64,000 bases of DNA, from contig JAQTRS010000004.1 in the NCBI GenBank assembly GCA_028711705.1, positions 9,205 to 73,204 on the forward strand. The letters are read 5' to 3'. Below are positions 5,029 through 49,819 of this stretch, piece after piece. A program made the position numbers and the translations under genes. Source of the stretch: Candidatus Moraniibacteriota bacterium. GTDB lineage: Bacteria; Patescibacteriota; Minisyncoccia; Moranbacterales; UBA1568. The first letter of the stretch is position 1. Each line of letters begins with the position of its first letter. The notes beneath the pieces were generated by a model. The model was not told the origin of the DNA, did no database searches, and worked only from the letters and a program-made list of their open reading frames with translations.

Positions 5029-6177
5029 ATGGCCCAAAAATACTGCATCAAAACTTTCGGTTGCGCGCAGAATGTGGCGGATTCCGAGCGGATCGCGTCG
5101 TTTTATGAGTCGCGCGGCTATGAGGAAACCAAGGACGATACGCAGGCGGATACCATCGTCATCAATACCTGCGTGATCCGCGGGCGGGCCGAGGAGAAGG
5201 TGTATGGCATGGTGCGTAATCTTCAGCCGTTGCGTGAGAAAAATCCCGACCTTTCCATCGTCATCACGGGGTGTCTGATCGGTGCGGCCTCGCGCGAGCC
5301 TTCAGGCAAGATGATGAAGGCACTCCGCAAGCGCGTGCCGCATGCGCAGCTTCTGCCGCTCGACGAAGTGGGTTTCGAATACGCCCCCAAGCGGACGCAG
5401 GGGAAGGCCGCCTTTATCCCGATTTCCAATGGGTGCAATAATTTCTGCGCCTACTGTATCGTGCCGTTTTCCCGGGGCAAGGAACGTTCCCGAACATTCG
5501 ATGAGATCGCGGGGGAGGTTTTCGAGGCGGTCGAATCCGGCTGCGAGGAAATCGTGCTCTTGGGCCAGAACGTGAATTCGTATGGGGCGGATTTTCTGCA
5601 GGAGAAAATCAAAGAAGGTGATGCTTACACATTGCCCAATGGGGAAAACGTGAAACCGGTGATGGTCAAGCATCTGAACCGCCATCGCATCCCGACTCTT
5701 TTCCCGCAGCTTCTGGAATATGTTGCGACCGTTCCCGGTGTGAAAAAAGTAACCTTCCTTTCTTCGAATCCGTGGGACTTTTCGGACGAGCTGATCGCGG
5801 TGATGGCGCGTCAAAAGAATATCGATCGCCGATTGCACCTGCCGGTGCAGGCGGGGAGCGATGCGGTGCTTAAGGCGATGAACCGCTGGTATACGCGCGA
5901 TGAATATGTGGCGCTTGTCGATCGTATCCGCAAAGCCATTCCGGAAATCGAAATCACCACCGATATCATCGTCGGTTTCCCGGGAGAGACGGATGAGCAA
6001 TTCGAGGATACGATGGATCTGGCCCGCAAAGTTGGGTTCGCGCAGGCGTATATCGCGTGGTATTCACCGCGTCCGGGAACATCCGCCGCGACCAAGATGC
6101 AAGATGACGTGCCTTTTTTGGAAAAGAAACGGCGTTTCAAACAGATCGATGATGTGGTGTGCGGAAGGCTTCCGTAA
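5029..6177 (+). CDS. miaB: radical-SAM methylthiotransferase (MiaB/RimO family), apparently lacking the C-terminal TRAM domain
   Basis: N-terminal MTTase domain (KTFGCAQN...). Radical-SAM CxxxCxxC (CNNFCAYC). Ends right after the radical-SAM domain, at a TAA embedded in the flank of the IR element. Confidence 0.8.
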   Translation: MAQKYCIKTFGCAQNVADSERIASFYESRGYEETKDDTQADTIVINTCVIRGRAEEKVYGMVRNLQPLREKNPDLSIVITGCLIGAASREPSGKMMKALRKRVPHAQLLPLDEVGFEYAPKRTQGKAAFIPISNGCNNFCAYCIVPFSRGKERSRTFDEIAGEVFEAVESGCEEIVLLGQNVNSYGADFLQEKIKEGDAYTLPNGENVKPVMVKHLNRHRIPTLFPQLLEYVATVPGVKKVTFLSSNPWDFSDELIAVMARQKNIDRRLHLPVQAGSDAVLKAMNRWYTRDEYVALVDRIRKAIPEIEITTDIIVGFPGETDEQFEDTMDLARKVGFAQAYIAWYSPRPGTSAATKMQDDVPFLEKKRRFKQIDDVVCGRLP

Positions 6178-10625: not shown

Positions 10626-12410
10626 ATGGATAAGCAGCAAAAACCGGAAACGAAGCAATTCGACTCGAGCCTCTTTTGGGGGCGGCTGTGGCAGCTTGTC
10701 GCGCCGTCGCACAAGCAGATCAGGCAATTGGTCGTTTTGATCGTGGTCGTTGAAGTGACGCGTATGGCCGGGCCATATCTTCTGAAGCTGGTTATCGATA
10801 CGATCACGCACTTGCAGGCCGACTCTTTCGGATGGCTCTTTCTGCTTTTGATGGCCATGTTTGCCTCGAACCAGGCGGTGGCGTTGCTTAATTTTTTCGC
10901 GGATAAAAAGATCTTCGCAATCCTTGGGGATGTTTTGGTCTATCTTTCGCAGAACGCTCACCGGAACATGGTGTTTTTGGATCTAAGCTATCACGAGAAA
11001 GAGGATACCGGCAATAAGATCACCAAGATCCAGCGCGGGGTGGACAAAATCGAGGGACTTATCGGAAGCCTGTTTTGGGAAGTGGTGCCAACACTCTTTC
11101 AGGCGGTATTTTCGACCATCGTGCTCTTCGCTATCGATTGGCGATTCGGGGTCTTGTTTCTGATTTTCGTCCCCCTGTTCGTGATCATGACCTTCAAGCT
11201 CAACAAGAATGTCTTCGAGCCGAGGAAAAAACGCTATACGCTCGAGGAAGAAGCCTCGGGACTGATGACGCAGTCGATCATCAATATCAACACCGTGAAA
11301 TCGTTCGTGCAGGAAAAGCCGGAGAACAGCCGGTTCAGAAAGAAGGTCAATACGGCTCGCGAGATGCTCTTGCTCGAGTTTAGCAAGGTGCGCCGGTATA
11401 ATCTGGGGCGCTTCTTCATCATCGATTCCGGGAGAATCACGCTCCTGATGACAGGCGTGTACCTGGTGTGGCACGGCAGCATCACGGTCGGAAGCTTAGT
11501 GTTCGTCTATACCATTTCAGAAAAGGCATTGCTTTCTTTGTTCCGTATTTCCCGATTGTATGACCAGATCATGCAGAGCAGCGAGGCAGTCAATCGTTTG
11601 CATGAGCTCTCTTCTGTCAAGTCGGAAATCATCAACCCGAAGGCCGGTGTGAATCCGAAGTCCTTGGAAGGATTGATCGAATTTCGCGATATGAGCTTCC
11701 AGTACAGCGGAAGCAAGCGCATGGCGCTTAAGGCTGTGAGTGTCAAGATTCCGGCAGGGAGCATGACGGCGCTTGTGGGCCCCTCCGGCGGCGGCAAAAC
11801 GACGCTCGCGCGCATGGTCTATCGGCACTATGACCCGACCCGAGGGGAGGTGTTATTGGATAATGTGGATCTGAAAAGTTATGACCTCTACGCTTTTCGT
11901 CGGCATATGGCGATCGTGCCGCAGGAAGTGGAAGTCTTCAATACGAGCGTGCGGGACAATATCGGCTATGCCAAAGAGGACGCGACGCTTGAGGAAATTC
12001 AAGCGGCGGCCAAGATCGCCAATGCGGATGAATTTATTACGGGGTTATCCGGCGGTTATGACACCTTGGTGGGTGAGCGCGGTATCAAACTTTCCGGCGG
12101 GCAGCGCCAGCGCCTGGGTATCGCCCGGGCCATTTTGGCCAATCCGAAGGTACTGATCTTCGATGAGGCGACGAGCAGCCTGGATTCGCAAAGCGAGCGA
12201 TTGATCCAGGAGGCGATGGATAAGATCAGCAAGAACCGCACCGTCATCGTCATCGCGCACCGTTTGAGTACGATCAAGAAGGCGGACAAGATCATCGTGC
12301 TCGAGAAGGGGCAAGTGGTTGAGGAAGGCAATCACCGAGAGCTTTCATCGGTCGAGGGCGGTCTTTATCAGAAGCTTCTGAAGTTGCAGGCTATGGGCGA
12401 TGTGGATTAG
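10626..12410 (+). CDS. ABC transporter, fused permease/ATP-binding exporter (MsbA-like)
   Basis: N-terminal six-helix TMD. Walker A GPSGGGKTT. ABC signature LSGGQRQR. Walker B LIFDEATSSLD. H-loop. Length 594 aa. Confidence 0.9.
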   Translation: MDKQQKPETKQFDSSLFWGRLWQLVAPSHKQIRQLVVLIVVVEVTRMAGPYLLKLVIDTITHLQADSFGWLFLLLMAMFASNQAVALLNFFADKKIFAILGDVLVYLSQNAHRNMVFLDLSYHEKEDTGNKITKIQRGVDKIEGLIGSLFWEVVPTLFQAVFSTIVLFAIDWRFGVLFLIFVPLFVIMTFKLNKNVFEPRKKRYTLEEEASGLMTQSIININTVKSFVQEKPENSRFRKKVNTAREMLLLEFSKVRRYNLGRFFIIDSGRITLLMTGVYLVWHGSITVGSLVFVYTISEKALLSLFRISRLYDQIMQSSEAVNRLHELSSVKSEIINPKAGVNPKSLEGLIEFRDMSFQYSGSKRMALKAVSVKIPAGSMTALVGPSGGGKTTLARMVYRHYDPTRGEVLLDNVDLKSYDLYAFRRHMAIVPQEVEVFNTSVRDNIGYAKEDATLEEIQAAAKIANADEFITGLSGGYDTLVGERGIKLSGGQRQRLGIARAILANPKVLIFDEATSSLDSQSERLIQEAMDKISKNRTVIVIAHRLSTIKKADKIIVLEKGQVVEEGNHRELSSVEGGLYQKLLKLQAMGDVD

Positions 12411-12564
12411 GGTCAGTTAGCAATCAACAATCAACAATTAATAGCTAGCAATTAACAGTCAACGATAAGCAATGAGCAATCAGCAGTTAACGGGAATAGT
12501 TATAAGAAGGCAGTCAATGAAAGTGGCTGCTTTCTTTGTATGGCACCTGAACGGATCGCCTTTT

Positions 12565-12615
12565 TTGACAATGTTTGCAGAAGCGTTATACTTAAGTATG
12601 TAAACAGTGTAAACA
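12565..12615 (+). promoter_or_regulatory. lexA promoter (TTGACA-N16-TATACT) with a 10-bp palindrome TACTTAAGTA over the -10 and a tandem GTAAACA direct repeat; candidate SOS operator
   Basis: TTGACA at 12565-12570. TATACT at 12587-12592. Perfect palindrome TACTTAAGTA at 12589-12598. TGTAAACAGTGTAAACA at 12599-12615, with a TGTTTGCA half-site upstream giving an imperfect inverted repeat. Confidence 0.45.
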
Positions 12616-12631
12616 AATTAAGTGAAGCTCT

Positions 12632-13276
12632 ATGCAAATGCTCACCCCGAAACAAAAGATCGTCTTGCAGGCCATCAAGCAGTACCTTATGGAAAAGGGG
12701 CAGTCGCCGACCGTGCGTGAATTGCGTCAGGAGACGACCAAGCTCGGGCTCAGCCTGAAAAGTTTGCGCAGCTTCTTTATCTATCTGAACGCGCTGGAAA
12801 AGAAGGGATATATCCAAAGGACGGCCGGTGAGCGTGGCATCACGCTTCGCGGTATCACGCGCAACAACTTCGTGGACGTGCCGGTTCTGGGTATGGCTAA
12901 TGCCGGGACGGCGCTTATGTTTGCGGACGAGTATGTGGAGGGGTTCCTGAAGGTTTCCAAACGCATCGTGCGCGATCTGGAAGTTTTTGCCGTGCAGGTA
13001 TCGGGAACGTCCATGAACCTTGCCACGGTGAACAGCAAGAATATCGAGGACGGCGATTTTATTTTGGTGGACAAGAACGCCGAATGCAGCAATGGCGATA
13101 AGGTCTTGGTGGTGATCGACGGTTTGGCGACGGTCAAGACCTTCCGTACGGTGGATGGCCACAATATCGCGCTCACCCCGGAGTCGAGCGACCCGCATCA
13201 CAAACCGATTTTCCTGACCGACGAGGACAACTTCGTCATCAACGGCAAAGTGATCGATGTTTTGAAACTAGGATAA
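12632..13276 (+). CDS. lexA: LexA repressor (wHTH plus S24 peptidase)
   Basis: N-terminal winged-HTH. Cleavage-region AG. Ser-Lys dyad (VSGTSM ... K). Length 214 aa. Confidence 0.85.
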   Translation: MQMLTPKQKIVLQAIKQYLMEKGQSPTVRELRQETTKLGLSLKSLRSFFIYLNALEKKGYIQRTAGERGITLRGITRNNFVDVPVLGMANAGTALMFADEYVEGFLKVSKRIVRDLEVFAVQVSGTSMNLATVNSKNIEDGDFILVDKNAECSNGDKVLVVIDGLATVKTFRTVDGHNIALTPESSDPHHKPIFLTDEDNFVINGKVIDVLKLG

Positions 13277-13300
13277 TAGGAATATATAATTATCTATCAT

Positions 13301-13693
13301 ATGAAGAAGATCGCTATCGGTTCAAGTATGCGATTTAGGGATGTGGTCAAAGAGACCATTGCAGCACTTGAATCTTTCGGATTGCAGCCACTTTTTCCAA
13401 ATATTGACTATAGCTTTGACAATAGGGATGTGGCCGAAAGTTTGGAAGAGAAATCCAAACTCGCATGGGATCATTATAAAGCTATAGAAGAATGTGATGC
13501 CGTATATTTTATCCTTCCCGACGGTTATATGGGGACGAGTTGTAAGATTGAGCTAGGATATGCGCTCGCATTCAGGAAGCCGGTGTATTTTTCAGAATCG
13601 ACCGGTGACATAGGGTTGGATTGTTATCCGAAAGCGATTATTCCTTTGGATAAACTGGAATTACTCAATGAGGTTTATGGAAAAAATCAATAA
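13301..13693 (+). CDS. nucleoside 2-deoxyribosyltransferase-like protein (NDT/DNPH1/LOG-fold)
   Basis: KIAIGSS N-terminal Rossmann-like start and MGTSCKIELGYA, matching the DSGTxFExGYA catalytic-Glu motif of the NDT family. 130 aa. Confidence 0.55.
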   Translation: MKKIAIGSSMRFRDVVKETIAALESFGLQPLFPNIDYSFDNRDVAESLEEKSKLAWDHYKAIEECDAVYFILPDGYMGTSCKIELGYALAFRKPVYFSESTGDIGLDCYPKAIIPLDKLELLNEVYGKNQ

Positions 13694-14264
13694 AAACAAG
13701 AAAGAAAGCTTGATTCCGTTGGAACGTATCGCGAGCAAGATTTTTTGGATACGTGGGAAAAAGGTGATGCTTGATCGCGATTTGGCAGAATTGTATGGCG
13801 TTGAGATAAGGGTTTTAAATCAGGCTGTCAAAAGGAATAAAGAACGCTTTCCGGAGGATTTTATGTTTCAACTGACTAATGAAGAAGTAGGAGGTCTAAG
13901 ATCACAATTTGTGACCTTAGACGAAACAATGGCTTCAAGATTCGATGAGAATGAATCTTTGAAGTCACAAATCGTGACTTCAAAGAGAGGTCGTCATCGA
14001 AAATATCTCCCCTATGTCTTCACTGAGCAAGGCGTTGCAATGCTCTCGAGCGTACTTAAGAGTAAAAAATCGATTGAGGTGAATATTTATATCATCCGAA
14101 GTTTCGTGCGGTTGCGTGAAATGCTTGCGACGCATAAGGAGCTATCTGAGAAGATCGAGAAGATGGAACGAAAATCCGATCGGCAATTTAAGCTGGTGTT
14201 CGATGTGATGCAAAGGCTTTTGGATGATGGCAAGAAACCGAAAAAACTGATCGGGTTTGAATAA
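13668..14264 (+). CDS. ORF6N domain protein (KilA-N-like DNA-binding)
   Basis: IRGKKVMLDRDLAELYGVEIRVLNQAVKRNKERFPEDFMFQLT is the canonical ORF6N signature. Overlaps the upstream gene's stop. Confidence 0.8.
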   Translation: MRFMEKINKNKKESLIPLERIASKIFWIRGKKVMLDRDLAELYGVEIRVLNQAVKRNKERFPEDFMFQLTNEEVGGLRSQFVTLDETMASRFDENESLKSQIVTSKRGRHRKYLPYVFTEQGVAMLSSVLKSKKSIEVNIYIIRSFVRLREMLATHKELSEKIEKMERKSDRQFKLVFDVMQRLLDDGKKPKKLIGFE

Positions 14265-14716
14265 TGCATACAAAATATATGAGAAAAGAACATTTCAAGA
14301 TTTTTTCCGCAGTACATCTATTTCTTTTGAAAGACGGGAACGTTTTGTTGTCCCGGCGTTTCAATACCGGTTATCGTGACGGAGAATACAGCGTGCCAGC
14401 CGGACATTTGGACGGAGGGGAAACGGCGATAGTGGTGATGATCCGCGAGGCAGAGGAAGAGATAGGAGTGATTTTGCAGAGAGCGAATCTGAAGATGGCT
14501 CATATCATGCATACATTGGATGGAAGAGAAACAGTGAGTTTCTTCGTGGTGGCGGAGAAATGGGCTGGAGACATCGTGAACAATGAACCAGAAAAATGCT
14601 CGGATCTCAGTTGGTTTCCGATCGATGCGCTTCCGGAAAATACCATTCCGTACATCCGGCATGCTTTGGAGTGCACCCAAAAAGGTATCGCGTATTCCGA
14701 ATTCGGCTGGGAATAG
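14264..14716 (+). CDS. NUDIX hydrolase
   Basis: Nudix box GHLDGGETAIVVMIREAEEEIGV (GX5EX7REUXEEXGU). Start overlaps the upstream stop. Confidence 0.85.
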   Translation: MHTKYMRKEHFKIFSAVHLFLLKDGNVLLSRRFNTGYRDGEYSVPAGHLDGGETAIVVMIREAEEEIGVILQRANLKMAHIMHTLDGRETVSFFVVAEKWAGDIVNNEPEKCSDLSWFPIDALPENTIPYIRHALECTQKGIAYSEFGWE

Positions 14717-14748
14717 GGTTTGTATTCCTTGAATAAATTTCTATAATT

Positions 14749-15768
14749 ATGGCTATAGATAGGGAATTTCTACGGATGCTCTCGGAAAGGTATCGCTTTT
14801 CAGGGGAGCTTCGTTTCGTGGAAAAGGTGAAGCAAGGGTATCTTTCCCATAATTTTATTCTCGAGGATAGCGAGAAGAAATATTTTTTGAAGCAGTATCG
14901 CTTCGATGATGCTTATCGTGTTACCGAGGTACAGGAGGCGAAAAAGTTTTTCCATGAGCGCGATATTCCTGTTGTGATGCCGATACTATCGTTGGATGGA
15001 TCGAGTTTTTTCGTGCATGACCATACATTCTACACGCTGTTCCCGTATGTTACAGGGTATCAGTTCGGGCATACGAGGCTGAGCGAAAATGCCTTGCGAT
15101 CCGCAGGGGAAATGCTGGCAAAAATACATACGCTTGGTAAAAATAAGTGCCCGCTCAGTATCGATCCGAGGAGTTTTGCCTGGAACCATGATGATTTCAT
15201 GCTGCGAGCGGATGCTTTAAAAACGATCATTCATACGCAATCACAGCAAACTGAATACGACACATCGGCGCTTCAATGCCTCGACATGAAAGCCGATCTT
15301 ATTGGACACAATACGAAACGATACGAGGATTTTTCCTTGCTTCAAGATGATGCACATATCCTGCACGGAGATTTCCATGATGAAAATCTTTTTTTCGATG
15401 AATATGGAAAGGTGATAGCCGTGTTCGATTGGGAGAAGGTGAATTGCGGTCCGAGGGGGATGGATGTCGCTCGCTCGCTACTACTGATCTGTTTTTGGGA
15501 TGGCTTTGAGGAGAGTCATTTTCACGATGCCAGTGTGTACTTGAAGGCGTATTGCCTGACATACCCGCTTACGAAAGAATACCTGAAGGAAGCCATTATG
15601 GCGTGGAATATGGTTCAGATGCACTCGTTGTGGGTTCTGGAAGGGCATTATTTGCGACATGATACGAGGATGGATGATCTTCTTGTGTCGCATATGCGCG
15701 GTATACGGTATTTTGCTGCGAATGAGGATGCGTATATAAAGAGATTGACCGGATCCTTACCGTCTTGA
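14749..15768 (+). CDS. phosphotransferase enzyme family protein (APH/ChoK/homoserine-kinase-II fold)
   Basis: Brenner/catalytic motif ILHGDFHDENLFFD and downstream DWE, typical of the aminoglycoside-phosphotransferase-like kinase family. Substrate unknown. Confidence 0.7.
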   Translation: MAIDREFLRMLSERYRFSGELRFVEKVKQGYLSHNFILEDSEKKYFLKQYRFDDAYRVTEVQEAKKFFHERDIPVVMPILSLDGSSFFVHDHTFYTLFPYVTGYQFGHTRLSENALRSAGEMLAKIHTLGKNKCPLSIDPRSFAWNHDDFMLRADALKTIIHTQSQQTEYDTSALQCLDMKADLIGHNTKRYEDFSLLQDDAHILHGDFHDENLFFDEYGKVIAVFDWEKVNCGPRGMDVARSLLLICFWDGFEESHFHDASVYLKAYCLTYPLTKEYLKEAIMAWNMVQMHSLWVLEGHYLRHDTRMDDLLVSHMRGIRYFAANEDAYIKRLTGSLPS

Positions 15769-15845
15769 TGTGTTTATGTAAGATAAGACCCGAGGGCGCT
15801 CTCAGGTCTTATCTTTTAATTTCTCGGTGTGAGATCTGCAGTCTT

Positions 15846-16184
15846 TTAGTGGGTCGATCGTTTTTCCGCTTCAAGCGCTATCGCTACCGCGAGAACCGCC
15901 GGACCCTCATCAAAGTGACTCGGATGCTCTTCTGCGAATTTGTCGCATTTTTCATCCGTAAGGAATTTAAGATCACCGACTTCGCGTAAAAGACCATGGA
16001 CAAGTATCGCTGTTCTCGTATCGTGCGCGATTTTTTCTGCATATGCTTTCAATTTCCCTGCTCGTTCAAGGTATGACTGATTATTTTCTCCTTCAGCCGC
16101 TCTTTCTCCTGCAGTTAAACCGGTTTTATGAATTTCTGCAAGTCCATTCCCTCTGTATGGATTTTCAAACAGATTTTTGCTCAT
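15846..16184 (-). CDS. hypothetical protein
   Basis: ORF on the minus strand between the operon end and the DUF2130 gene. No motifs. Start uncertain (16184 or 16238). Confidence 0.35.
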   Translation of the reverse strand: MSKNLFENPYRGNGLAEIHKTGLTAGERAAEGENNQSYLERAGKLKAYAEKIAHDTRTAILVHGLLREVGDLKFLTDEKCDKFAEEHPSHFDEGPAVLAVAIALEAEKRSTH

Positions 16185-16314
16185 ATTGCGTGTCTTTAAC
16201 GGATAATCACCTTCTCTGCTATAATACCAGTATAGCACAGCGGCCCGGAGGAAAGGAAAGAAACGTCCGTATGAGGCTTAGCTATCATATAACTTACCGT
16301 AATCATATACTCCT

Positions 16315-17718
16315 ATGACCGAGCAATCCATTAGCTGTCCGAAATGCGCGACCAATATCCCTTTGACCGAAGCGCTGTCACAGCAGATTACCGAGCAGTT
16401 GCGGGGCGAATTCGAAAGGGAGGAAGAGAAACGGCAGCAGGCGTTTTCGGAACAGCAGAAGCGACTCGAGATGGAGAAGAAGATGCTCGAGCAGAAATCC
16501 GCATCGATGGATGAGTTGGTGGCCAAAGAAATCTCTCAGAAGTTGTCGGTAGAGAAAGAGGTCTTATGGAAAAAGGCGGAAGTTCAGGCGCAGGAAAGAT
16601 TGTCGGTGGAGATGGCGGACCTGAAATCGCAGAACGAGGAGCGTGCGCGCGAGCTTGAAGAGGCGCGAAAGAATGAGATCGAGCTTCGTCGCAAGACGCG
16701 GGAAATCGAGGACAGGGAAAAGAATTTGGAACTTGAAATGGAACGAAAGATGGACGAGGAAAAGGAGAAGCTCGGACAGAGTATCCGCAAGGCGGCGGAA
16801 GAGGAATTCCGCATGAAGATGCTCGAGAAAGACAAGCAATTGGAACAGGCTCAGCGCCAGGCGGATGATCTGAAACGCAAACTCGATCAGGGATCGATGC
16901 AGATCCAGGGCGATGTGCAGGAGAATGACCTGCGCGATACGCTGCGATCGACCTTCTTGAGCGATATTATCGAGGATGTGGCGACGGGTATCCGGGGTGC
17001 GGATCTTATCCAGACCGTGCAGACGCAATTCGGGCAGAAGTGCGGGGTGCTTTTGTGGGAATCGAAGAATACCAAGGCGTGGAGCGGGGATTGGATCAAG
17101 AAGCTCAAAAGCGATCAGGGCATCGCCAAGGCGGACGTGTGCATCCTGGTATCCAAGACGCTGCCCGAAGGCATCGCCTCTTTCGGGCTGATGGATGGCG
17201 TGTGGGTGTGCGAGTATGCCTCGGCCCTCCCTTTGGCGGAGGCGCTCCGTGTGACCTTGCAGGAAGTCCACAAAATAAAGCAGGCATCCGTGGGTAAGGG
17301 CGAGAAGATGGAGGCCTTGTATGAATACCTGACGGGCAATCAGTTCAAGAATCGCGTGGAGAATATCGTGATGGCATTCACGAGCATGAAAAACGATCTG
17401 GATATCGAGAAGCGTTCCTTCCAGAAGATGTGGAGCAAGCGGGAGAAGGAAATCGAGCGCGTGACGCTCAATACGGTCGGGATGTATGGCGATCTGCAGG
17501 GCATTGCCGGTGCCAATGCCCTGCCTCGCGTGGAGAGCTTGGAGCTTCCCGAAGAGACCTTGGATGAGCCTCCTGAAGAAATAGAAAAAATAGACGTACC
17601 AATAGAGGCGGCGGCCATTCCGGAAGCTCCAGCGAAAACAGGAAAGAAGAAAGAGTCTTCGATCAAGACGGCAGAGGAAGAGCTTTCGGCTACGAGGATT
17701 GCCGGTGCGCTTTTTTAA
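16315..17718 (+). CDS. DUF2130-like protein: N-terminal Cys pair, long coiled-coil, C-terminal PD-(D/E)xK-like domain
   Basis: CPKC near the N-terminus. About 250 aa of E/K/R-rich heptad repeats. C-terminal region with GADL...LLWESKNTK (D...E-x-K). Acidic tail. Confidence 0.55.
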   Translation: MTEQSISCPKCATNIPLTEALSQQITEQLRGEFEREEEKRQQAFSEQQKRLEMEKKMLEQKSASMDELVAKEISQKLSVEKEVLWKKAEVQAQERLSVEMADLKSQNEERARELEEARKNEIELRRKTREIEDREKNLELEMERKMDEEKEKLGQSIRKAAEEEFRMKMLEKDKQLEQAQRQADDLKRKLDQGSMQIQGDVQENDLRDTLRSTFLSDIIEDVATGIRGADLIQTVQTQFGQKCGVLLWESKNTKAWSGDWIKKLKSDQGIAKADVCILVSKTLPEGIASFGLMDGVWVCEYASALPLAEALRVTLQEVHKIKQASVGKGEKMEALYEYLTGNQFKNRVENIVMAFTSMKNDLDIEKRSFQKMWSKREKEIERVTLNTVGMYGDLQGIAGANALPRVESLELPEETLDEPPEEIEKIDVPIEAAAIPEAPAKTGKKKESSIKTAEEELSATRIAGALF

Positions 17719-29597: not shown

Positions 29598-29735
29598 ATC
29601 AGAACTTCTGATGAAAGAAATAGTGGCGCGCGACGTATAGCTTGTCTATATGCTGCGCGCCTTTTTTTATTCCTTTTTTGCAGACAAGAACGGATGGAAA
29701 TGGTATGATGGAAGAACGAAGTTTTTGTTTTGCTT

Positions 29736-30416
29736 ATGGCGAGTTTTCGCGCACATTTTTCTCTTGGCATACTTTTGGGCGTTGCGGCGGTGGCTACTAT
29801 AGTCAGTTTCACTTTGGCGGACGAGGCGAGTTTCTATGTGGCGGTATTCGTGGCAGCGGTGATCGGCGGCATCATGCCGGATATGGATAGTGATTCGGGC
29901 ATCCCATTCCATGTGACGTTCGGGGTGCTCAGCTGCATTGCCGGAAGTCTTGCCTTGCTTCATGTGATGCGGACTGCTCCGCATGATTGCCAATTGCTTA
30001 TCGGTTGGCCGATCGGGGCGATGTTTTTGGTGTGGGTGGTGGGCGGTTCGATATTCAAGCAGCTCACGCATCATCGCGGTATGGTGCATTCGATTCCGGC
30101 GGCGCTGCTTTCCGGATTGGTGACCTTCATGTTGGCGCAGAAGTATGGTTTTATCGAAGGCGATGCTTTTCTTTTGGCGGTAGCGCTGACGATCGGGTTT
30201 ATCGGACACTTAGTTTTGGATGAGATATGGGCGGCGGTCAATTTTCACGGCGTGCCATTCATCCCCAACAAGGCTTTCGGGAGCGCCCTGAAACTAGCGT
30301 CGCACAGCAAATTGACCAATGTCATCGTCTACGGGCTCATACTTTTTTTCTTGGCAGGGAATTGGGAGAGTCTGACCCATTTGTCGGAAACGCTGTTTGC
30401 GACGGTGCGGCCATAG
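29736..30416 (+). CDS. membrane-bound metal-dependent hydrolase (YdjM/DUF457 family)
   Basis: Multi-TM protein with HHRGMVHS and HLVLDE His/Asp motifs typical of YdjM. Confidence 0.55.
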   Translation: MASFRAHFSLGILLGVAAVATIVSFTLADEASFYVAVFVAAVIGGIMPDMDSDSGIPFHVTFGVLSCIAGSLALLHVMRTAPHDCQLLIGWPIGAMFLVWVVGGSIFKQLTHHRGMVHSIPAALLSGLVTFMLAQKYGFIEGDAFLLAVALTIGFIGHLVLDEIWAAVNFHGVPFIPNKAFGSALKLASHSKLTNVIVYGLILFFLAGNWESLTHLSETLFATVRP

Positions 30417-30629
30417 CCAGGTTGCAAAAACTGCCCTAAGCTCCACTCTTCATTTTATTTGAGCCATTTTAAGAAAATCTTGCGGATGTGTCATTGACAA
30501 AATCCGTCAAGAGGTATATACTATTCAGTCGGTTCATTGACAATCTACAAGTACATAAGTATAAACAAGCGTTGGTTACGTCAAAAAACCGCCTGTTTAC
30601 GATTTTCACAAAAACAAACCTGGAGAAGA

Positions 30630-49451: not shown

Positions 49452-49819
49452 TCATGGAAAGTCTGAGTCCTAGCGCTCAAGTATTCAAATCTTGGTAGGT
49501 TATTGTGGAGTAACCTTTCTCAATTTGTATGTTTTTCGTTCAGGATTCACGCTTCGTTTCAAGCAAAAGAGGTTATGAACAGTTTCTCACTGTGAATAGC
49601 AGTGCAAGAAGATCGTTTTTCGTATCGGGGGGTCGACATGCTTCGAGGGGAAAGGACCTATCTTCAGTTGTTCACGTGTTAACCAAACCTGTTGGATGGA
49701 ATCTTTTGTAGGTTCCCCTCAACGGTAATTAAGTAAGTATAAGTAAAATAGTTTCATTCCGATGACGCAGCCCGCTTTGTGCGTGATGCGCAGAGGATTG
49801 AAAATAGAGAAGAAAATAT

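Follow-up and report, generated by a model that had tools for sequence, protein, structure and literature searches.

LexA stands at the head of several known SOS operons, among them lexA-dinF in E. coli and the lexA2-imuA-imuB-dnaE2 mutagenesis cassette. Sanitising of the nucleotide pool proceeds in two steps, in which a MutT/MTH1-type Nudix hydrolase or a MazG/DCTPP1 pyrophosphohydrolase acts first, followed by the deoxynucleoside monophosphate (dNMP) N-glycosidase DNPH1. LexA-controlled anti-repressors occur in temperate phages, and the SOS network of Patescibacteria was reportedly the subject of a study by Sanchez-Osuna, Barbe and Erill (2017, in Environ Microbiol 19:3465, as cited in PMC8565304). 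Here we analysed a lexA locus from the metagenome-assembled genome of an uncultured Candidatus Moraniibacteriota bacterium, lying on a stretch of 64,000 nucleotides (nt) of contig JAQTRS010000004.1, called the window hereafter, to which all coordinates refer unless another locus is named. In this locus, lexA is followed by genes for an enzyme resembling nucleoside 2-deoxyribosyltransferase (NDT) and DNPH1, an ORF6N protein, a Nudix hydrolase and a kinase of the aminoglycoside phosphotransferase (APH) fold. We propose, with a probability of about one half, that these genes belong to a genus-level, lexA-proximal cluster for nucleotide or metabolite damage control, linked to the SOS response and expressed at least partly from the lexA promoter.

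The locus resembles the lexA-headed SOS operons in that lexA comes first, the following genes are on the same strand, no terminator was found between them, and LexA is expected to control its own promoter. It differs from lexA-dinF and from the imu operons by its cargo, which consists of Nudix, NDT/DNPH1-like, APH or MazG, and ORF6N genes rather than of an efflux protein or translesion polymerases. In addition, the cargo varies here between sister species and has a base composition unlike that of lexA, and co-transcription is a prediction. With respect to the pool-sanitising pathways, the likeness lies in the enzyme classes, an intact Nudix box, a conserved nucleophilic Glu and the presence of MazG in the same slot of a sister lineage. 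Compared to the characterised enzymes of these pathways, the NDT-like protein has only 13-21% identity, and the Nudix protein is below every equivalog cutoff. As for the SOS network of Patescibacteria, the organism belongs to the same superphylum and has a canonical two-domain LexA that is probably self-regulating.

The identity of LexA is firm. The protein passes the NCBIfam equivalog TIGR00498 (121 bits, for a cutoff of 110.95), and both its Pfam domains score above gathering, LexA_DNA_bind (PF01726) with 45.7 bits and Peptidase_S24 (PF00717) with 75 bits. The Ala-Gly site was read from the translation in MANAGT, the Ser in GTSMN and the Lys in LATVKTF, these positions being assigned by visual comparison with the motifs of E. 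coli LexA and not by formal alignment. LexA is thus apparently able to cleave itself. An exact look-up of the protein, with both of its possible starts, returned no record.

The five open reading frames (ORFs) are all on the forward strand: lexA at 12632-13276 (214 aa), the NDT-like gene at 13301-13693 (130 aa), the ORF6N gene at 13668-14264, the Nudix gene at 14264-14716 (150 aa) and the APH gene at 14749-15768 (339 aa). From lexA to APH, successive genes are 24 nt apart, overlap by 26 nt, overlap by 1 nt and are 32 nt apart, exactly as given in a preliminary description of this DNA. In public gene calls the Nudix gene starts at 14279, which yields a 145-aa protein and a 14-nt gap after ORF6N, not a 1-nt overlap. 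The five protein assignments of the preliminary description also held, as all Pfam matches exceeded their gathering scores and two of the proteins gave confident structure models. A pattern scan found no terminator between lexA and APH. Past the APH gene, an intrinsic terminator was identified on the forward strand at 15780-15824, with a hairpin at 15780-15815 made of an 11-bp outer stem and a 4-bp inner stem, and a U-rich tail UUUUAAUUU. Its folding energy is -19.1 kcal/mol (z = -2.4). The pattern scan was limited to loops of 3-8 nt, and it hence missed this larger hairpin. Since no terminator was found before it, the downstream genes are expected to rise together with lexA when LexA cleaves itself upon DNA damage. 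A convergent gene of 112-130 aa, on the minus strand at 15846-16238, marks the downstream boundary and lies outside the unit.

To compare lexA loci, a metagenome scan with LexA was used, which yielded 80 loci, and look-ups of APH and Nudix homologs added more. Four lineages share the surroundings of the locus. Lineage A (the window and L001) has the order lexA-NDT-ORF6N-Nudix-APH, then the convergent gene and DUF2130. Lineage B (L103-L106 and L199) reads lexA-NDT (75% identity)-ORF6N (71%)-BroN-Nudix (75-77%)-APH (54%)-DUF2130. Lineage C (L023, L197 and L198) reads lexA-53-aa ORF-Nudix (88%)-MazG, followed by the convergent gene and DUF2130, and lineage D (L024) is reduced to lexA-57-aa ORF-Nudix (58-61%)-DUF2130. 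The four lineages are about equidistant, with DUF2130 proteins 85-88% and LexA proteins 94-98% identical. At the DNA level, lexA genes whose proteins share 97-98% identity are only 79-83% identical, which means that synonymous sites have largely diverged.

A Nudix gene therefore follows lexA in 4/4 lineages, and the full gene set is present in two of them. In lineage C, MazG occupies the APH slot. Lineages C and D are without NDT and APH and have kept a 53-57-aa remnant of ORF6N: their small ORF (L023 2232-2393; L197 6825-6986; L024 around 5680-5856) and the tail at the C terminus of the window's ORF6N protein are homologous, and for this reason both look like deletion derivatives. The distance between lexA and the next gene is 11-25 nt across lineages (11 nt to the NDT gene in lineage B), with no terminator found. 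The preliminary description had proposed a nucleotide-sanitising module. Its theme is upheld by the constant Nudix gene and by MazG in the APH slot; the idea of a fixed five-gene unit is not, given the two lineages devoid of NDT and APH. As to conservation of the neighbourhood, the gene order recurs, with Bro-N added, in sister lineage B, and homologs of the cargo are absent from 75 more distant lexA loci. The recent insertion of an island into this genome alone was rejected, because lineage B has the same order and lineages C and D retain the ORF6N tail.

We then considered the lexA promoter. It lies on the forward strand at 12565-12592, with a -35 box TTGACA (12565-12570), a 16-nt spacer and a -10 box TATACT (12587-12592), and scores 11 matches out of 12. 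In an alignment of 8 orthologous lexA upstream regions, the -35 core TTTGAC does not vary. A box resembling a -10 element can be recognised in 7 of the 8 (it is not evident in L029), and the -10 hexamer has just 2 invariant columns. In the preliminary description, a perfect 10-bp palindrome over the -10 box was put forward as a candidate operator; on this reading, the palindrome would be the LexA operator and the five genes a fixed SOS operon. The palindrome exists and does overlap the -10 box, its perfect length being 12 bp, ATACTTAAGTAT at 12588-12599. The 10-bp form TACTTAAGTA (12589-12598) occurs once in the window. One-mismatch copies are found in the window at two places only, one at 30552, in the promoter of a gene for a 144-aa protein, the other at 49726, ahead of the RNase J gene. 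A near-copy, TACATAAGTA, is shared by promoter 30552 and, in the distant locus L030, by the promoter of lexA, which speaks for the palindrome. Three observations speak against it. First, its columns are not conserved, lineage B (L103) having ATACGTAT and lineages C and D (L023, L024) TAATGAGTAT, and none of the three sister lineages has the palindrome at its lexA promoter, despite LexA proteins that are 94-98% identical. Second, the spacing of the arms differs, ATAC-TTAA-GTAT in the window versus ATAC-GTAT in L103. Third, perfect palindromes of 10-12 bp are not rarer than chance in the window, with 81 10-mers against about 60 in shuffled sequences, and 14 12-mers against about 15. Together with the variable gene set, these results make it very improbable that the palindrome is the operator of a fixed five-gene unit.

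Just after the -10 box, the forward strand carries a direct repeat, TGTAAACA-G-TGTAAACA, at 12599-12615 (copies at 12599-12606 and 12608-12615). A GTAAACA tandem repeat next to the palindrome had been reported in the preliminary description, and is indeed there, as two copies of TGTAAACA. Lineages A and B (the latter in L103 and L199) share the 17-mer TGTAAACAGTGTAAACA letter for letter. In all 8 aligned lexA promoters, GTAAACA is invariant just downstream of the -10 position and is preceded by a TGTAA half-copy. The form GTAA-N5-GTAAAC is found at the lexA promoters of L023, L197, L024, L025 and L029, and elsewhere in the fetched DNA GTAA-N5-GTAAACA gave two chance matches only (in L023/L197 and in L082). 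Judging from the -10 position, we estimate that the direct repeat would cover about +1 to +17. As the repeat is conserved, and the palindrome is unconserved and no rarer than expected by chance, the operator hypothesis was moved to the repeat: we infer that TGTAAAC-N2-TGTAAACA, not the palindrome, is the candidate site of LexA binding.

A second sigma-70-like promoter, TTGACA-17-TATAAA at 30537-30567, carries TACATAAGTATAAACA, which resembles TACTTAAGTATGTAAACA of the lexA promoter. It is upstream of the 144-aa protein already mentioned, which has no Pfam match, and just downstream of a YdjM-family gene (29730-30416). No such operator motif was found upstream of that YdjM-family gene.

The Nudix protein, common to the four lineages, matches Pfam NUDIX with 58.4 bits and has an intact Nudix box, GHLDGGETAIVVMIREAEEEIGV (GX5EX7REUXEEXGU). 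At equivalog level it matches neither the 8-oxo-dGTPase MutT nor another named Nudix enzyme: all 12 NCBIfam matches are below equivalog cutoffs, the best being TIGR00586 (41.1 bits for a cutoff of 97.9), sequence matches in the PDB are weak and of mixed specificity, and the subfamily has about 2900 members that are widely spread. The APH protein matches Pfam APH (PF01636) with 91.6 bits. Its motifs HGDFHDEN and DWE are present, and each of 24 homologs keeps the residues H206, G207, D208, N213 and D227. Its structure model has a predicted local distance difference test score (pLDDT) of 91.9, and the top Foldseek matches are homoserine kinase II, APH(9), YtaA, NahK (N-acetylhexosamine kinase), AmiN (amicoumacin kinase) and YihE, at 12-16% identity. 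The protein is below every NCBIfam equivalog cutoff (APH(3') 15.6 versus 205; the Ser/Thr kinase PRK11768 50 versus 194; homoserine kinase 41.6 versus 271). From the model and the motifs, it looks like an active small-molecule kinase.

Of 6 independent clades with the APH subfamily, 4 have a Nudix gene next to it: L107/L108, L109-L111, L112/L113 and this genus. The Nudix gene of L112/L113, an ortholog with 50% identity, has a 4-nt overlap with APH. The APH gene of a fifth clade has an HD_3/YfbR-like nucleotidase as its neighbour. The recurrence of this adjacency lends independent support to the Nudix-kinase pair as a functional unit. As a side observation, L112 (4224-7769) has the order glyoxalase, Nudix, APH, two Ser_hydrolase genes and HAD phosphatase, which by its gene content looks like a metabolite damage-control cluster. 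In L107 (5383-7380) and L109-L111 it is also beside Nudix genes that the APH subfamily is found.

The 130-aa protein following lexA in lineages A and B scores 32.1 bits with PF05014 (Nuc_deoxyrib_tr), above the cutoff of 28.8. Its AlphaFold model, built on 30 homologs, has a pLDDT of 91.1, and the top Foldseek matches in the PDB are exclusively NDT, the CMP N-glycosidase BcmB, DNPH1/RCL and YtoQ, with template modelling (TM) scores of 0.55-0.73; it is to such characterised members that the low identities given above refer. Residue E84, in the ELG motif (CKIELGYA), is the same in all 30 homologs. Its counterpart in the aligned Chroococcidiopsis NDT (8pqp) is the nucleophile E88, the residue mutated in 8pqs and 8pqq. 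The NDT/DNPH1 assignment and the catalytic Glu of the preliminary description are therefore sustained, by a profile score above cutoff, an exclusive match to the NDT flavodoxin-like fold and an invariant E84. Within the family S9, S80 and K82 are also invariant and R13 nearly so, and by analogy with DNPH1 these residues could bind phosphate. By its profile, fold and motif, the protein is a member of the NDT/DNPH1/CMP N-glycosidase superfamily, either a transferase or a DNPH1-like hydrolase.

We found 138 homologs of this protein, of 128-130 aa and 55-75% identity, having a precomputed PF05014 match, in Patescibacteria, metagenome-assembled genomes (MAGs) of Clostridiales, Woesearchaeota and Pacearchaeota. 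A family of such uniform length, crossing domains from Patescibacteria and Clostridiales MAGs to DPANN as a lone gene, suggests strong constraint or transfer among organisms with reduced genomes. It is nearly absent from viral contigs, where a single weak match was obtained, and a viral origin of the gene was rejected on that ground. In one genome (L013), a 53%-identical Nudix ortholog is directly upstream of the NDT-like gene.

The mechanism that we propose is as follows. The lexA gene would be transcribed from its strong sigma-70-type promoter, with the direct repeat in the start region serving as LexA operator. Upon DNA damage, LexA self-cleavage would derepress this promoter, and read-through would raise transcription of NDT-ORF6N-Nudix-APH, as far as the terminator (15780-15815). 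Non-canonical or damaged (d)NTPs would be converted into monophosphates by the Nudix hydrolase, or by MazG in lineage C. From the deoxynucleotide or deoxynucleoside so produced, the NDT/DNPH1-like enzyme would remove the base, or it would exchange it for another. The kinase of the APH fold would phosphorylate a small molecule, perhaps a substrate of salvage or detoxification. ORF6N, and Bro-N in lineage B, would be phage-type genes lodged in the cluster. A wider version of this proposal, which we put forward tentatively and hold to be somewhat doubtful, is that within this genus of Moranbacteria, and perhaps also in other bacteria of the candidate phyla radiation (CPR) that have reduced genomes and rely on salvaged nucleotides, the SOS response co-expresses a Nudix hydrolase, a DNPH1-like N-glycosidase and/or MazG with LexA by way of the direct-repeat operator.

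Several results weigh against an SOS-linked cluster, and most of them favour another explanation, that the genes are neighbours by history: the stretch between lexA and DUF2130 would be a hotspot of insertion and deletion, in which accessory genes collect and are expressed from their own promoters, and their position behind lexA would have no regulatory or functional meaning. The base composition is the first of these results. The G+C content at third codon positions (GC3) is 0.735 in lexA, a value typical of core genes, and 0.69-0.74 in lexA together with the flanking genes (peroxiredoxin, ABC transporter, DUF2130), as compared to 0.40-0.52 in the four cargo genes (0.40 for the NDT-like gene). 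Low cargo GC3, and a content varying among four otherwise syntenic lineages, are as in an insertion hotspot. The presence of phage-type ORF6N and Bro-N genes inside the cluster goes in the same direction. Moreover, an internal promoter-like site, TTGAAA-17-TATAAT, is found on the forward strand at 13262-13290 (11 matches out of 12), over the end of lexA and the 24-nt gap, before the NDT-like gene. A similar one, TTGAAA-18-TATAAA, is at the same junction in L023 and L197, and L103 has one before its Nudix gene. Such sites could make the cargo independent of LexA; under our proposal, they would probably add basal expression.

The spacing of the genes is no strong counterargument. In L103, 15 genes out of 15 are on one strand, and gaps of 10-40 nt are usual in these genomes; as same-strand packing is the genomic background, the tight spacing between lexA and its cargo is weak evidence. 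In lineages B and D, the array continues into DUF2130 with no terminator found. Beyond the genus, cargo homologs were present at 0 of 75 lexA loci (out of the 80 fetched): loci whose lexA shows 67-72% identity are flanked by other genes (DAHP synthase, TfoX), and L029 has a different Nudix gene, placed upstream. No conserved neighbour of the NDT-like gene was found in 21 genome loci (no Pfam family beside more than two), which led us to reject the notion that NDT carries a fixed operon along.

The operator too meets difficulties. The window contains no second copy of the 17-mer repeat, allowing up to 3 mismatches. Motif searches of the window detected none of RecA, UvrA, UvrB, UvrD, RuvB, DinB and ribonucleotide reductase (RNR), and Pfam searches on 10 of its larger genes, a subset of its ORFs, returned housekeeping functions only and no SOS gene. 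As no second SOS gene was detected there, a LexA box cannot be defined from the window. The conserved repeat could instead be an element of the 5' untranslated region or of the transcription start site.

On the other side, a pure hotspot would not explain why the slot always receives genes of one functional class, a Nudix gene in every lineage plus NDT/DNPH1-like and APH, or MazG. The gap from lexA to the next gene stays within narrow limits, with no terminator found, and the lexA-NDT junction of L103 is free of promoter-like sites. Lastly, adjacency of Nudix with APH, and of Nudix with NDT, recurs in unrelated genomes. We therefore hold the purely historical explanation to be possible, yet on the unlikely side. 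If adjacency were only historical, the locus would still be a clear example of a small variable hotspot beside a highly conserved regulator.

Some further observations touch on the history of the locus. Cargo GC3 is about 0.2 below that of core genes in both GC-rich lineages, A (13280-16250) and B (L103 4976-8259), and in the GC-poorer L024 the GC3 of Nudix is 0.36, versus 0.49-0.59 for its neighbours. With a cluster ancestral to the four lineages, the absent amelioration of cargo GC3 has no explanation. Three independent assemblies (L001, L105 and L106) have a break that falls in lexA or at its end, immediately ahead of the cargo. Such breaks would be expected if strains with different cargo and near-identical lexA genes co-exist in the samples, and they count in favour of the historical explanation as a sign of co-existing variants. 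Between L197 (lineage C) and L024 (lineage D), the small ORFs share 87% identity, as against only 66% for the adjacent Nudix genes. Judging from these identities, the small ORF may be either a maintained small protein or a remnant recently exchanged.

The ORF6N protein required separate consideration, as it raises the question of an anti-phage or mobile-element function. It matches Pfam ORF6N with 129.5 bits (gathering score 27.8), has a C-terminal helical tail and is KilA-N-like. ORF6N and the Bro-N of the sister lineage are phage-type DNA-binding genes. Under a defence explanation, ORF6N, Nudix and kinase would form a defence or abortive-infection cassette, or else ORF6N would be an SOS-controlled anti-repressor switch. 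Among PHROG families, the ORF6N protein does match anti-repressors, and viral contigs contain at least 100 of its relatives. Three hidden Markov models (HMMs) of the PADLOC candidate PDC-S05 match it, the best with E = 3e-61, and the Nudix protein matches weakly the candidate PDC-S07 (2e-07). In E. coli, phages T7 and T5 plated about 1000-fold less well with one representative of PDC-S05 (bioRxiv 10.1101/2024.09.26.614923). The Bro-N neighbour in lineage B, the variable gene content and the low GC3 would also fit with such a function.

Other results speak against such a function. The tested protein carried a Virulence_RhuM domain (bioRxiv 10.1101/2024.09.26.614923), whereas the window protein has ORF6N and a sub-threshold Pfam match to Phage_pRha, with no Virulence_RhuM domain in Pfam at E ≤ 0.01, and the 306-position PDC-S05 model PDLC04869 was matched over positions 5-174 only. 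PADLOC gave no match for NDT, APH or LexA and no multi-gene system, and membership in a known defence system was rejected, as the matches were to single-gene candidates only. In two lineages ORF6N has shrunk to the tail of 53-57 aa while Nudix persists. The NDT-like family is cellular, found as a lone gene across CPR and DPANN, and the wide spread of the Nudix subfamily likewise counts against a defence function. Compared to phage anti-repressors, ORF6N has in common its type and its place downstream of a predicted LexA-controlled promoter. The repressor here is, however, a host lexA, with core-like GC3 and a score above the equivalog cutoff, and no prophage context was found. A defence or anti-repressor function of the cluster is therefore considered improbable, and nucleotide or metabolite damage control is the function that we favour.

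Within the ORF6N gene, two palindromes were noted, at 13897-13921 (CTAAGATCACAATTTGTGACCTTAG) and at 13956-13986 (TCTTTGAAGTCACGATTTGTGACTTCAAAGA, with a 14-pair stem), the sequence of the latter being given for the minus strand. Both fall where a peptide motif is duplicated (LRSQFVT / LKSQIVTS), and the codons that encode S-Q-F-V-T form a palindrome on their own. These palindromes are probably a coding by-product of the internal duplication.

Operons headed by lexA, and house-cleaning by Nudix, MazG and DNPH1 enzymes, are each well known separately. Their combination, and a candidate direct-repeat operator, were not found described in the literature covered, from which the 2017 study of the Patescibacteria network is excepted. 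Likewise, a LexA motif of Patescibacteria was not found stated in the accessible literature, the motif and regulon of that same study being outside the comparison. To our knowledge, CPR bacteria cannot make nucleotides de novo, and live on scavenged, possibly damaged precursors. If our proposal is true, sanitation of the pool would be part of the CPR response to DNA damage, which is not a known feature of classical SOS regulons; hygiene of the dNTP pool would then join the core SOS outputs, and another LexA-binding motif would be added to those known. The analysis yields a candidate LexA operator for the lineage, a conserved NDT/DNPH1-like family of 128-130 aa in CPR and DPANN, and a recurrent Nudix-APH pair.

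Finally, some minor features of the surroundings were recorded. An Rfam scan of 12000-16600 detected no structured RNA family. Between the stop codon of the ABC-transporter gene and the lexA promoter, at 12415-12491, about 11 degenerate heptamers are found (CAATCAA, CAATTAA, CAGTCAA, CAATGAG and others), of which TRF scores just 2.6 perfect copies, at 12421-12438. They are not visible in L024, where 140 nt upstream of lexA were read. The convergent gene at 15846-16238 has no match in Pfam, NCBIfam, PADLOC or PHROG; homologs of 32% identity occupy the same position in L023 and L197 of lineage C.

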